64,000 nt of DNA from the IMG/VR virus record IMGVR_UViG_2880395615_000002; one strand, 5' to 3'. Below are positions 1 through 12,000 of this stretch, in pieces. Within the stretch, counting starts at the first letter, position 1, and every line of letters begins with the position of its first letter. Made by a program: the position numbers. This DNA is from a virus. Taxonomy: Duplodnaviria; Heunggongvirae; Uroviricota; Caudoviricetes.

Positions 1-3000
1 ATGGACAACGACAAAATTGATCAACACAGCGACGAAATTGAAGTTGAGAGCGAAGAAAAAGAGCGTGGCAAAAAAATAGAAATAGATGAAGATCGACTCC
101 CCTCCCGGGCGATGGCAATTCATGAGCATATCCGCCAGGATGGTGAAAAAGAGCTGGAACGCGACGCAATGGCACTACTGTGGTCAGCCATTGCGGCGGG
201 TCTGTCGATGGGCGCTTCATTACTGGCAAAAGGGATATTTCATGTCGAACTGGAAGGTGTGCCGGGCAGCTTCTTGCTGGAGAATCTCGGTTATACCTTT
301 GGTTTTATTATCGTCATTATGGCCCGCCAGCAATTATTTACCGAAAACACCGTGACTGCGGTACTACCCGTCATGCAAAAACCGACAATGAGCAACGTTG
401 GCTTACTTATGCGGTTATGGGGCGTCGTGCTGCTGGGTAATATTCTCGGGACAGGTATTGCGGCGTGGGCATTTGAATATATGCCAATCTTCAATGAAGA
501 AACTCGCGATGCATTTGTCAAAATCGGCATGGATGTGATGAAGAACACCCCCAGCGAGATGTTTGCCAACGCGATCATTTCCGGCTGGCTGATCGCCACT
601 ATGGTATGGATGTTTCCTGCAGCGGGTGCGGCAAAGATTGTGGTGATTATATTGATGACCTGGCTTATTGCCCTGGGTGACACCACTCACATCGTTGTCG
701 GTTCTGTTGAAATCCTCTATCTGGTGTTTAACGGTACGCTGCACTGGAGCGATTTCATCTGGCCCTTCGCACTACCTACTTTAGCGGGGAACATCTGCGG
801 CGGCACCTTTATCTTCGCGTTAATGAGTCATGCACAGATCCGTAACGACATGAGCAACAAGCGCAAAGCAGAAGCACGCCAAAAAGCAGAACGTGCGGAA
901 AACATTAAGAAAAATGATAAAAACCCGGCATAAATGGCGAGGGTTTAAGCAATCGAGCGGCAGCGTACTTACCCCGCAGTCCATTAGCGGGTATACTCAT
1001 GCCGCATTGTCCTCTTAGTTAAATGGATATAATGAATATAAGTATTAACTCATTGATTTAAATACAGAAAGCACCAAAATAATCGTCATATCCGTACCCA
1101 TTTATGTACACATCCCGTTAAGCATGCCCCGCACTTCCGTACGGGGCATGTTCTTTACTCCACTCCCACTTTTTTGTTGTACTCGCGGTTAAACCGATCC
1201 ACGGCAATTTTCATATCCCGCTCAACCGATTTCACCATCGCCGACTGTTGCGCCAGACTGAGAGTACTGTCGGCGTAAATGGCATCACGCTGTTTACGCA
1301 AATCCTTCAGTCTCTTCCGGGTATCCTGCATAAGCCCGTTCATCGACAATTTTCCGTTGTTCTCGTCAATGAACGCCGTTCTTTCTGCACCGGTCAGACT
1401 CTTCAGCTCTGCGTGATACTGCGCAACCTCTGTCATCCGGTCGTACATCTTCTGCTGGTCAGCATACGGCATCACCTCACCTGAAATTTTCCCCAGGAAG
1501 GGCACCTGCTGCTCCGGTATATCAATACCATTCAGCGATTTCACCGCCGCATCCGTGGTTTTGGAAATGAAGCGCCCTGTCCCTCCGGAGATATAGTCCA
1601 CCCAGTATTTCAGCGATTCCGGTGTGATATCCACCGCGCCGGGACGGTACTGGCTGCCACCAGAGAACGCATTCAGCCAGGATGCAAACGCCTTGTACGC
1701 TTCTGGCGTTGAACGTCTTCCCAGCTGGCTGTCAGGTTTTGGTGTACCAAACGGCATGTTCTCCTGGTAAATCTGCGCCCCCATGAAGTTTTCATTCATG
1801 GCAAGGTTCGCAAACGGACGCAGAATGGTCGGCGCTGCATTTTTCAGCAATGCCCCGGACAGTGTTTCCGACGTCTCACTGCCAATCGGGCTGAATGCAC
1901 CAAGCACACCACCAACAACATTACCGGCAGCACGGGACGCCGTCAGGTCACCCGCCGCCACACCTTCAGCAGTATGCCCGAGCAGGAAGAAAACGTTGTA
2001 CCCGTAAGGCAGAGGAATACTCCAGTACTCTCCGGCCTTGCCCCCGAACACCGATTTCATAATGACGAGGTTACGCTCTTTCACATGAGACGGCACCTTA
2101 TCATACCAGTTAACCCCGTCATCATTCTCACCCGCCACGCTGCGGTTAAGCGAGCCAAGCAGATAACCTGCTCCCACAGCGGCAAGCGCGATTTTCTGCG
2201 GAACATTCAGATTCTTCCAGCGAAGGCGCTCCAGTAAAGGTCCCTCACCATTAAGATGTCCGAGCGTTCTCACCAGATTTGCCGTTCCCTGAATGCTGGC
2301 GTTGGCGAACATGTACAGCGAATTCATCAGCGCCCCCTGCTCACCACGACGGTTAAAGTTCACCGTCATGTTTTTGGCAAGAGACGCCGCCTGCTGGCGT
2401 GACAAACCGGCATCACGGGCGTGCTTATAGGCAGAAAGACGCAGAGCGTTTTCAACCGCACCGTTGGCATCCTCGACAAGGTTAAGGAACGAATTCCATG
2501 CACCGATACTCTGGCCTTTCCATCCCCCCTTCGCCAGTGAGACAAGGCGATCCATTTCCTTCTGCTGGCCTTCAAGGTCACCCATGTTAAACCAGCCGGT
2601 TTTCCCTCCGTCCTCAACAAACTCTTTCCACACCTTCTGCCACTGTGCACCTTTTCCCGTGAGGGTTTTACCACGCAGACTGGCGTATACGGCTGACATG
2701 GCAGAACGGCTGTCTTTCACCACAGCCAGGGCGGATAAGTTATCCAGCCCTTTCAGTTTACCGTCGCTCCTTCCCTGCTCCGCCTTCAGGTTCATCACCG
2801 CCGTCTGCACGTCACGGATGAAGTTACTGACCAGGAATTCCGGGTTATACGACGTGTTCACCGTTGCCAGGAAGCGGTTAACTTTCCCCAGCGTGCGGAT
2901 TACGGCGTTACTGGTTTCCGGTCCCATATTCTTCATCGCACGCATCAGGCGCGGGTCATGGAGTTTGATGTAGTACGTTTTGCCGTTCTTTTTGGTGGTG

Positions 3001-9000: not shown

Positions 9001-12000
9001 GGATCATCATAGCCTTCACTCATTGGCGTATTCAGCGCACGCACAGCACCCGGCGACATATTATCGGTCAGCCATTCATCCGAGGCTTTAGCACCATCAC
9101 TGACAGCCTTACCGGTTGCCTTCAGACCTTTACCGACAGTATCAGTAACCGCGTTTTTGCCATCAGGCAGGGTATCGATGACCTCATCAGCCCCCCTGCT
9201 GCCACCGGCAAAAATATCCTGCACAGTTGCGACACCCGGCAGCCCCATACGGCTGAACTCATTTAAAATACGCGCCCCTGTTTTTACCGGGCTCTGAATC
9301 ATCGCATCACCGAGTCCACGGGCCATTTCCCCTGTTCCCCGGACGGACTGGGCGAAACCTTTACCCATTGTTGGCAATACATCGCCCAGGCTGAACGACG
9401 TACTGTTATCCTTCCAGCGATTCGGATCAGAGAAAAATGCTTCATAGCTGTCAGTTTCGCCGGGTTGCTGAATGTTCAGGCTGTTACGATTCTGGTTACC
9501 GAGTTGCGCCTCAGGACGCTGTTCCTCTGAATAGGCCATACAGACTCCATAAAAAAACCCGGCACAATGGCCGGGCATCAGGAAATGGTATTAATGGAAT
9601 ATCGTGAATTACTGGGCGTAATTCTGTTTCAGTCCACGGATAAACTGAGATGCAGATGAAGCACTTTCATCTCTGGCCTGTTCCCCCCTGGCCTTTTGAA
9701 TACGGAGAAAATTCGCATACCCGTTCTCCAGCAATTTCTGATTCTGAGGTTCCAGCATTTCAGGCTGACGGGCCGCTACATTTCTGGCAAATGACAGCTT
9801 ATCAGGATCATCTCCCGCCCAGTTGATAACCTGTTGCTGAAGTTTTTGTTGCTGAATTTTCTGTTGATGCGGTTGTGAACCAGTCGCAGCATAATATTCA
9901 TCCACCGCAGCCTGAGCATTACCGCCATTCTTGATCGCGTCCGCCGCTACGTTGCTGGCCCCCTTCTGAAGCTCTTTCAGAGAAAGTCCCTGCTGCTTCG
10001 GCATAAAATAACCATAATTTTTCGATATCTCTGCAAATTTGCTGCGATCCCTGACCTGAGCGATAGCCTTATCAACGGGTATCGCCAGCACGGTTTGATC
10101 ATCAGGGTGCGCACTGCCGTATTCTGTTACAGGTTTATGCGCGGTGGAGCCATCGCTGTATGTGAGATCAAGGCCAATAAGTACGTACCCTTCCTGCTGC
10201 GCTGGTACGATACTGCCAATCCTGGCCTCTTTTATCGTTTTTTCCCCGGTTGAATCAGGCATGCCAATACGCTGTTGTAGTTCCGGGGCAAACACGCCGG
10301 AAAGCACATCGAGATTTTCCGGGGTATTCAGCGAATCGATCGCCATGTCCGGCTTATCACCAAAGATTTTTTGCAGGTTGATCACGGCCTGACCCGCTTT
10401 CGCTGCATAGCCTTCGTTTGACATAAGAATTAATGGATGTCCCTTTGGCAGCTGCCCGAACAGACGCGTTGCAGCCTCCTGATCGCCAGCCTCAATTGCT
10501 TTTCCAAGCGCTTCCATTAGTGGCTGGCTATGGGCAATCATATCGTTATACTCAAGCCGTCGCTGGTTGTATTTCTGCAACTGGAGTCGTTGCTGTTCCA
10601 TCCCCAGCGACGCATTCCGGTAATTCTGGTTAGCGTTAAACTCCCTTTCCTTCAGTGCATAATTACGGTCGTCAACTTTGGCTCTGTAATCAAAGTTCCG
10701 CTGATCAACGTTTTTATTATGTTCAAACTGAGACTGCGCAAACTCAAAATCGCGCTCGTTATTTTTCTGTTGCCGGGCAAGCTGTGCTTCACGCAGACCA
10801 AGCTCCTTACGACGGGTCATTGCCTGGTCAACGGTGCTGAATCCGGCAAGTACCCCCTGTGCAAATCCGCTCATTCACCACTCCTTAAAACAAAGAACCA
10901 GCAATGCCGCCAATTACTGCTCCAGCAACAGCACCAACAGGACCACCAACGGATGCGCCAATAGCCACCCCCGTACCAATGCCCGTACCGATATTCTGCT
11001 TGTTCTGCGCTTTCTGTTGCGCCGCCATCTGTTTGTTCGCAGCCTCAATTTCTTCACGTCGTCTGTCTGCGTCACTTATTCCCTGTAATGCCTCACGCCG
11101 CGACTGATTTGCAATATCCAGTAAACCGTATCCCATATTGCCCCCTTACGCTGCCACCAGTTGGCCGCCAACACTCAGTTTCTGTCTTGCCGGTGCAGAA
11201 GCCCCCGTCAGAATATTCATCTGGCGATCCTGTTCGGCTTCACGGATACCATTTTTCGCGCCAGCAATTGCCAGGGCATTACGTAACCCCAGCGTATTAC
11301 TGTCGGGATTATCCGGGCGGTTTACCCCGTATCTCGCCATCTGGTTATCCTGCGCCATCTGCGCTGTACGGAGACTGGAAGTGGCAAGGCCTCCCACCCG
11401 TGCAAGCTGTGCATTCATCAGACTGTTGTTCTCCCCAAGGTCAGCCAGCCTTGCTACACGGGGTAAATATCTGGTGCGCCAGTCGTCGTATTGCTGGCGG
11501 GTCAGCGCTGCGGATGTCTGCCAGTCCCCCTGAGGGCGGGCTGCTCCGGTATAACCGTATCTTGCAAGTGTTTCGTATTTACCGTACTCCATAATCACAG
11601 TCTCCAGTTCTGAGCCTGATGCTGAATGGCATTAGCGCCGGTGCCAGGTGTTTTAGCACCGCCACTTCCTCCGCTACCGCCAGCCTTATGCATCGCATAT
11701 GCACCTGCCGCACCCAGACCAGCGCCAACAAGAGAGGCTCGCCCCTGCTGTTTCGTAAACGCCGCCTGTGCATCCGATTTAGCTTTTGCCAGACTGCTGT
11801 CTGCCAGAGAGTTAAAACTCTGTAACGCATCCGCCTTCTGACCAGAACCGAGAGCAGCAACATCCTGTAGCCCGGCAACATACTTATCTGCCTGCGATAC
11901 CTGCCCCCGTGTGGTTGTGTCAATCTGCCCGGTTACCTGGTCACTCTGGTTCGCATTCATTACCGCATTAAAACGACCACTGGATGGGTCAACGCCGGAC

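Follow-up and report, generated by a model that had tools for sequence, protein, structure and literature searches.

The giant gene and its locus

The window analysed here, a 64,000-nucleotide stretch of DNA (IMG/VR record IMGVR_UViG_2880395615_000002), contains a short-tailed, Shiga toxin (Stx) 1a-converting prophage of the Sepvirinae, which occupies the site between yfdC and argW in E. coli O157. The listing of open reading frames (ORFs) in the window includes a single uninterrupted frame at 1155..9578 on the minus strand (2807 codons plus stop, opening with ATG), which is the last gene on the late-gene strand, downstream of the portal, capsid and tail-fibre genes. Its product is the orthologue of Sp5 ORF80, 933W p72 and phi24B gp47, and is a phage-type polyvalent protein of the short-tailed Stx phages. 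The original prediction, made from the sequence alone, described an 8.4-kb ORF encoding 2807 aa at this position; the uninterrupted frame stands, while the length of the product does not. Translation almost certainly starts at M14 (ATG at 9539), making the most likely coding sequence 1155..9539 (minus strand) and its product 2794 aa long, beginning MAYSEEQ and free of cysteine. This length follows from the position of a GGAG (9545-9548) 5 nt 5′ of the ATG, from the PGAP (NCBI) annotation of the identical gene in strain 644-PT8, which begins at the ATG equivalent to M14, from the end-to-end match of the PHROG 616 profile, whose alignment begins at residue 14, from a terminator-like hairpin within which ORF codons 1-8 fall, and from the only two Cys codons of the ORF (codons 5 and 13), both of which precede M14. 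All residues are given here in ORF numbering, the annotated numbering being the ORF number minus 13.

The hairpin is a strong one (9550..9576, minus strand; GCCCGGC...GCCGGGT, a 7-bp stem with 6 G-C pairs followed by a T7 run). It sits directly between the upstream 421-aa gene and the ribosome-binding site and start codon of the giant gene, and 933W, phi24B and PV11-77 have the identical element. The hairpin may lower expression of the giant protein unless Q antitermination reads through it, as late transcription antiterminated by Q probably does.

The stop codon of the giant gene lies 122 nt from one copy of the att core, a 24-bp direct repeat (GTCCTCTTAGTTAAATGGATATAA; 1009..1032), the second copy of which (58747-58770) falls within argW as the 5′ end of tRNA-Arg(CCU). 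The gene is thus placed at the end of the late operon, as had been proposed. The adjoining att site had also been called attL; because the prophage integrase is encoded at the opposite end (57382-58626), this junction is instead attR, the integrase-distal prophage end, in the lambda/933W convention.

Conservation and published orthologues

The gene is 100% identical at the DNA level to its counterparts in AU5Stx1, AU6Stx1 and SH2026Stx1, and shares 96.9% DNA identity with phi24B and 95.6% with VT2-Sakai/Sp5 and many others. Full-length copies are found in 186 phage records and, of 5426 complete E. coli genomes, in 422. In comparisons with 933W and PV11-77, the ratio of nonsynonymous to synonymous substitution rates (dN/dS) was 0.05-0.29 in every segment, the low-complexity linker included, a pattern indicating purifying selection throughout and one real gene. 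The synonymous rate (dS) in the same comparisons spans a ~60-fold range across segments (0.02-1.39), which points to mosaic recombination, and divergence among Stx phages is patchy in the N-terminal half, with 57-90% identity in some 100-aa windows.

The gene is already known, having been annotated by Pfam and PGAP, deleted in Sp5 and detected as protein in phi24B virions. Sp5 ORF80/ECs1242, 933W p72 (NP_049532) and phi24B vb_24B_48 (gp47 in the preprint cited below) are orthologues at 95.6-96.9% DNA identity that are like it in length, in their position at the end of the late operon, in the upstream hairpin and ribosome-binding site and in both HExxH motifs. They differ in the surroundings: 933W has ~4 kb more genes between the giant gene and attR, where here there are 122 nt.

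Mondal et al. 2016 (PMC5155283) deleted the 2793-aa Sp5 orthologue. The mutant showed excision, DNA packaging and normal-looking heads, gave zero plaques and zero lysogens, and was complemented in trans (PMC5155283). An anti-tail-fibre antibody failed to bind the mutant particles, and the authors assigned the gene to tail formation, with an AAA+ (COG1483) domain as a possibility (PMC5155283). We rejected the latter assignment, as no Walker A motif ([AG]xxxxGK[ST]) occurs anywhere in the protein and neither Pfam nor NCBIfam returned an AAA match. Since the Sp5 orthologue is essential for infectious particles, the giant protein is more than an accessory effector. In phi24B, mass spectrometry detects abundant gp47 in the virions, and the cryo-EM model lacks it (bioRxiv 10.64898/2026.04.10.717836). 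The same preprint lists LPD5, LPD1, LPD38 and a "MuF-C metallopeptidase" for gp47 and proposes an encapsidated ejection protein with a peptidase that degrades peptidoglycan (10.64898/2026.04.10.717836).

Polyvalent proteins were defined by Iyer et al. 2017 (PMC5512222) as giant proteins with many unrelated domains, encoded by phages and conjugative elements and delivered alongside the DNA. A zincin-like metallopeptidase, proposed to be an autoprocessor, is their commonest hub domain, and LPD38 is restricted to the phage-type members (PMC5512222). The protein studied here conforms to this type, being a giant late product, encoded among late prophage genes, that joins several unrelated domains in one chain (LPD5, a zincin metallopeptidase, LPD1, PBECR/MuF_C and LPD38). 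It departs from it in carrying two zincins of separate clades, the second of which lacks a Pfam model, and in that the polyvalent concept stresses accessory counter-defence, whereas here the orthologue is essential.

Domain architecture

Four Pfam models matched far above their cut-offs of ~27 bits, namely LPD5 (aa 1064-1213; 152.6 bits), LPD1 (aa 1374-1453; 81 bits), MuF_C (aa 1763-1852; 64.4 bits) and LPD38 (aa 2490-2695; 166.7 bits). The two HExxH motifs that had been predicted are both present as placed and both fall outside every matched Pfam model; from the His and Glu content of the protein, 0.04 such motifs would be expected by chance. The protein is a chain of cassettes that occur as separate genes elsewhere, with boundaries at aa ~917, 1447 and 1872. 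A Salmonella orthologue (P0134), which has a ~250-aa phosphoribosyltransferase-like insert between LPD1 and zincin 2, provides an example of cargo swapping at such a boundary. Sequence searches of the Protein Data Bank (PDB; phmmer and profile searches) returned nothing meaningful for the whole protein, for cassette 1, for zincin 2 with MuF_C or for the chassis, and no PADLOC defence family matched at E <= 0.1.

The N-terminal 1050 aa are essentially specific to Stx phages and are the most variable part of the protein among them (82-100% identity). They begin with an Ala/Gly-rich region (8199..9539, minus strand; aa 14-460) that includes a Gly-zipper-like stretch (aa 422-439) and of which only aa ~292-421 are shared outside Stx phages, with Vibrio podophages. 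A low-complexity linker rich in Glu, Pro, Gln and Arg follows (6831..8198, minus strand; aa 461-916). The predicted Pro/Gln/Glu-rich stretches hold moderately, with enrichment in this linker (P/Q/E 7.7/7.2/12.1% vs 4.6/4.5/7.1% in the whole protein), which is the most divergent part among Stx phages, with dN/dS still at 0.16-0.26. Scanned against Pfam at permissive settings, the N-terminal 1050 aa and aa 1890-2490 yielded nothing beyond Gly-zipper and WXG100 noise below threshold, and no convincing transmembrane helix was detected, as Kyte-Doolittle values in 19-residue windows never exceeded 1.22.

Two zincin-like domains

The first motif, HEWFH (in ALAHEWFHSLD; 5676..5690, minus strand; aa 1297-1301, with H1297, E1298 and H1301), lies in cassette 1 (5238..6830, minus strand; aa 917-1447), which comprises LPD5 and zincin domain 1, the C-terminal helix of the zincin being Pfam LPD1. 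With aa 1040-1480 as query, >1600 homologues were retrieved, mostly solo proteins of 450-700 aa carrying LPD5 and LPD1. One such protein of 558 aa (P0116) aligns end to end with aa 917-1447 at 36% identity, and cassette 1 is therefore a complete gene elsewhere. Among 78 aligned homologues, H1276 (in strand 2), E1278, H1297, E1298, H1301, D1304 and D1375 are invariant, and E1388 and E1395 nearly so. The phage-type metallopeptidase clade of Iyer et al. is marked by a His ending strand 2 and an Asp three residues past the motif (PMC5512222), and in these alignments zincin 1 carries exactly that signature.

AlphaFold2 models were obtained for both motif regions. In that of zincin 1 (mean predicted local distance difference test score, pLDDT, 89.6), a helix and three strands precede the HExxH helix, and a later helix, which corresponds to LPD1, bears the Glu. 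Domain 1 (aa ~1214-1460) thus has the features of the zincin/gluzincin fold, namely an HExxH helix, a Glu as third ligand on a later helix and a core made of a three-stranded sheet and an N-terminal helix. A Foldseek search with the model gave no significant result, and the NCBIfam model CLCA_X scored 152.6 bits on domain 1, below its cut-off of 260. The LPD5 part of the model (aa 1040-1214) folds into two small alpha/beta units with weak, non-significant Foldseek matches to dsRBD/PUR-like nucleic-acid binders. A solo LPD5 and zincin 1 gene (558 aa; 8001-9677 of contig L007) was seen on a mobile-element-like contig near genes for Acb1 (anti-CBASS), Peptidase_M78 and an H-NS-like protein, a neighbourhood that hints at an anti-defence setting.

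The second motif, HEIIH (in LRHEIIHHAMEH; 4875..4889, minus strand; aa 1564-1568, with H1564, E1565 and H1568), belongs to zincin domain 2 (4539..5114, minus strand; aa ~1489-1680), for which there is no Pfam model; aa 1470-1700 had no Pfam match, Peptidase_M76 reaching just E 0.16. When 1.84 billion cluster representatives were scanned exhaustively with HMMER, 390 relatives were retrieved, mostly within proteins of 1000-6000 aa. In the 148 that were aligned, E1565, H1568 and the candidate third ligand E1620 (nt 4719-4721) are conserved in all, H1564 in 145 and E1627 in 135. Two further histidines near the motif, H1569 and H1573, to which the original prediction had drawn attention, are not conserved in this set. 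The model of domain 2 (pLDDT 79 overall, 72-96 within the domain) has the same order of elements, with a helix and three strands before the HExxH helix and a Glu helix after it, and so presents the same fold features over aa ~1489-1680. A zincin core was therefore recovered for both motif regions, where a lack of metallopeptidase-like structure had been named as grounds for dropping the idea. A profile comparison of zincin 1 with zincin 2 (hhalign) was not significant (probability 2%), with the strand-2 His and the HExxH aligned. A Pectobacterium sequence (P0133) was considered as a solo zincin 2 and MuF_C gene and rejected, being a decayed prophage fragment beside an LPD1 fragment.

Structural comparison was made with the gluzincin endopeptidases MtfA (M90), lethal factor and the Pro-Pro endopeptidases (PPEP; M34), the minigluzincins projannalysin and selecase, and SprT/Wss1. 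Identities to these were 8-18%, at which no membership is detectable at the sequence level, and zincin 1 differs from them in its additional conserved His and Asp near the site. On the evidence of the models, the nearest folds of the two zincins appear to be protein endopeptidases of cytosolic or toxin type (MtfA, lethal factor, PPEP, minigluzincins, SprT/Wss1 and IrrE). Both domains are predicted to be active zinc endopeptidases, zinc binding and hydrolysis alike being predictions from the models and the conserved ligands.

The MuF_C domain and the C-terminal chassis

Downstream of zincin 2 lies MuF_C/PBECR (3999..4457, minus strand; aa ~1708-1860), with a predicted metal-independent RNase-like fold. 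All 13 MuF_C homologues keep H1765 and S1829, and the Pfam match, the conserved His with a Ser on a late strand and the BECR-like fold of the model together identify the domain as the PBECR of Iyer et al., a BECR-fold, RNase-like domain rather than a peptidase.

The remainder of the protein (1173..3965, minus strand; aa 1872-2802, including LPD38 at aa 2490-2695) is a ~930-aa segment, here called the chassis, that is at least 97% conserved among Stx phages. Its 265 homologues are in some cases solo proteins (~900-980 aa) and in others joined to methyltransferase, ART-PolyVal or MuF_C cargo, and aa 1872-2802 share 54% identity with a complete solo protein of 981 aa (10001-12946 of contig L010). 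That solo gene lies in a small element with an integrase, an excisionase, a YqaJ exonuclease and an S24 repressor. Within 23 kb no structural genes were visible, and the element could be a satellite or a remnant. Among sequenced phages the chassis occurs in Stx phages (98-100% identity), in Vibrio podophages (41%), in one Bacillus podophage (33%) and in the Bcep22-like/GP4-like giants (27%). Zincin 2 was found in 123 relatives of at least 1000 aa, 53 of which also carry the chassis; in all 53 the chassis occupies the extreme C-terminus with zincin 2 upstream (median gap 126 aa), preceded by N-terminal cargo of 1 to ~2900 aa that includes Sbno-type helicases.

Giants of the Bcep22-like and GP4-like phages, such as Bcep22 gp75 and JC1 gp69, are homologous over their C-terminal ~770-780 aa (27%, E 3e-55 to 4e-51) and are likewise sited at the end of a morphogenesis module. 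The portal, capsid and tail proteins of these phages have relatives in Stx phages, and mass spectrometry shows JC1 gp69 to be associated with the virion. They differ in their length of 4500-4600 aa and in their DarB-type cargo, the chassis alone being common to both. The Stx protein itself is not of the P1 DarB type, as it has no Pfam match to an N6-adenine methyltransferase or superfamily 2 helicase and no Walker A motif, and its PHROG 'DarB-like' match is confined to the chassis (aa 2365-2695).

A more distant parallel is offered by the virion RNA polymerases (vRNAPs) N4 gp50 and DEV gp71, which are also giant, cysteine-free, capsid-packed, ejected proteins with enzymatic cargo, a zincin-like HExxH and a large helical C-terminus. 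In N4, encapsidation requires a part of the protein in which the HExxH domain lies. The Stx giant has no RNA polymerase module, and the likeness is one of analogy, not membership: hhalign gave no significant match of the chassis to N4 gp50 aa 2124-3500 (probability 0.2%) or of zincin 2 to the C-terminal domain of N4 vRNAP, and no solved PDB structure matches the chassis by sequence.

Absence of cysteine

The 2794-aa product contains no cysteine, compared with 0.8% in the other 18 late proteins of the prophage (P about 2e-10), and 97 of 110 giant relatives also lack it. Suppression of cysteine is a conserved trait of the N4/DEV ejection proteins (vRNAP gp50/gp71 and partners), where it has been attributed to passage through the oxidising periplasm (PMC11445570). 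By this analogy, the absence of cysteine supports packaging of the giant protein in the virion and its ejection. The presence of the phi24B orthologue in virions but not in the cryo-EM model, together with the zero cysteines, suggests delivery into the host with the DNA. The prediction of a giant, multi-domain, probably injected protein with zincin-like domains thus fits the conserved ligand residues, the ~97%-identical phi24B orthologue in virions and the lack of cysteine.

Proposed function and alternative explanations

The interpretation that we consider probable, with real room for doubt, is that of an essential polyvalent protein, packaged in the capsid and ejected, in which a conserved chassis carries cargo cassettes and the zincins cut the polyprotein and/or host targets. 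The protein would be a late product housed in the T=9 capsid, from which it would exit through the portal and tail along with the DNA. Its passage across the periplasm in an at least partially unfolded state would account for the absence of cysteine. The ~930-aa C-terminal chassis with its LPD38 region would supply the essential virion or ejection function, and the part upstream would be exchangeable cargo, consisting of a helical N-terminus, a disordered linker, LPD5 with a gluzincin, a second minimal gluzincin and a BECR RNase-like domain. The zincins would most likely cut the polyprotein into separately acting pieces, and may also cleave host proteins early in infection; the position of zincin 2 at the junction of cargo and chassis across the family fits a role in release.

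Several points weigh against this interpretation. Ejection, protease activity and its substrates are matters that we infer, as is the role of the chassis, for which the evidence is conservation and position, and RNase activity is a prediction. No curated peptidase family in Pfam or NCBIfam reaches its cut-off for either zincin, and neither has a PDB sequence match. Of the analogues that have a zincin-like domain, the N4 vRNAP is the best studied, and it is packaged without being processed. Mondal et al. read the Sp5 mutant as defective in tail assembly (PMC5155283), and the failure of the tail-fibre antibody to bind may reflect a structural task at the portal or tail instead of ejection.

A more far-reaching version, which we put forward tentatively and regard as rather doubtful, is that the protein is a vehicle that dismantles itself. 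The cysteine-free chassis would be the essential ejection device of T=9 podophages and, in that case, a general injection scaffold with swappable cargo, and the zincins, with zincin 2 fixed where cargo and chassis meet, would act as a release switch after entry, freeing the PBECR effector and the LPD5 enzyme to disarm host RNA-based or other defences.

The most serious alternative, although we judge it unlikely, is that the protein serves first of all in the structure or assembly of the tail or portal vertex, with secondary or vestigial enzyme-like domains. The DNA-filled normal heads of the Sp5 ORF80 mutant, whose particles are non-infectious and not bound by the antibody (PMC5155283), argue for such a role, as does the conservation of the C-terminal 930 aa. 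Against it, the protein is absent from the high-resolution phi24B model of tail, portal and capsid despite its abundance by mass spectrometry, the catalytic residues of the zincin and BECR domains show strict conservation in hundreds of distant relatives, a constant chassis is combined with varying cargo, and the chain is free of cysteine like known ejected proteins. Structural and ejection roles are not mutually exclusive. The Sp5 phenotype is compatible with an internal protein that occupies the portal vertex before the tail joins, and it also keeps the structural explanation alive.

We think it improbable that the metallopeptidase domains degrade peptidoglycan or the envelope so that an ejection conduit reaches the inner membrane. 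Podophage ejection proteins such as T7 gp16 bear wall-degrading domains, which counts in favour of this idea. It was also proposed by the phi24B authors (10.64898/2026.04.10.717836); the peptidase of that proposal, however, is MuF_C, a BECR RNase-like domain. Pfam, NCBIfam and PHROG searches, even per segment at permissive E-values, gave no lysozyme, transglycosylase, amidase, M23, M15 or NlpC/P60 signal, the nearest folds of the zincins act on proteins, and the phage encodes a separate lysozyme elsewhere in the prophage. The cell-wall-processing domains that the original prediction had suggested thus find no counterpart in these searches.

Hardly more credible is a non-peptidase function of the HExxH domains, either as metalloenzymes of other kinds (YbeY-like metallo-RNases, alpha-ketoglutarate/HExxH oxygenases) or as non-catalytic zinc scaffolds; the two domains score below the cut-off of every curated peptidase family, and their modelled folds lie nearest to endopeptidases. 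Finally, that the 8.4-kb ORF is an artefact, several genes joined by chance or by sequencing error, can be dismissed as next to impossible: older records do place many small ORFs under it (19 in AP005153, 4 in phi24B), but the frame is intact throughout the phage records and genomes counted above, every segment shows low dN/dS, a single full-length profile (PHROG 616) matches, and the orthologues were detected by mass spectrometry (phi24B) and complemented as one gene (Sp5).

Short-tailed Stx phages spread Shiga toxin genes in E. coli, and the giant gene takes up ~14% of the phage genome. Published readings of its domains as an "AAA+ ATPase" and as a "MuF-C metallopeptidase degrading peptidoglycan" are partly wrong. 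While no new kind of system is revealed, the two zincin folds, the cassette boundaries, the rule of chassis plus cargo, the cysteine-free signature and the correction of these two published readings are what the present analysis adds. The residue-level map, with two gluzincin sites and one BECR site, makes the hypothesis of ejection and autoprocessing directly testable by point mutants.

Neighbouring genes and prophage setting

The 421-aa gene immediately upstream of the giant gene (9609-10874, minus strand) is the orthologue of the essential Sp5 ORF79; its product lacks cysteine and has no Pfam match. It is preceded by an 83-aa gene (10885-11136, minus strand) whose product has a Gly-zipper/bacteriocin-like C-terminus, and both products are candidates for ejection partners or membrane proteins. 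Judged from the coordinate offset, the window exceeds the prophage of strain 644-PT8, with which it is otherwise identical, by 2451 bp, the extra sequence being somewhere in ~17500-57000.

The toxin genes stx1A/stx1B (36500-37735, minus strand) lie downstream of the Q antiterminator and are followed by a gene for a SASA/NanS-type esterase (34056-35996), reported in phi24B to be a capsid decoration protein. On the opposite strand of the nin region, a 590-aa ORF (40579-42351, plus strand) lies in a 35% GC island, against ~50% elsewhere in the prophage. Neither Pfam nor PADLOC returned a match for this ORF, which may be a moron or defence-like cargo. Beyond the integrase-proximal end, the region from argW onwards (58747-63164) is a remnant of a neighbouring cryptic prophage, with a second integrase, IntS, P22-like DNA-transfer/ejection genes and a truncated gene for a tail-needle knob.

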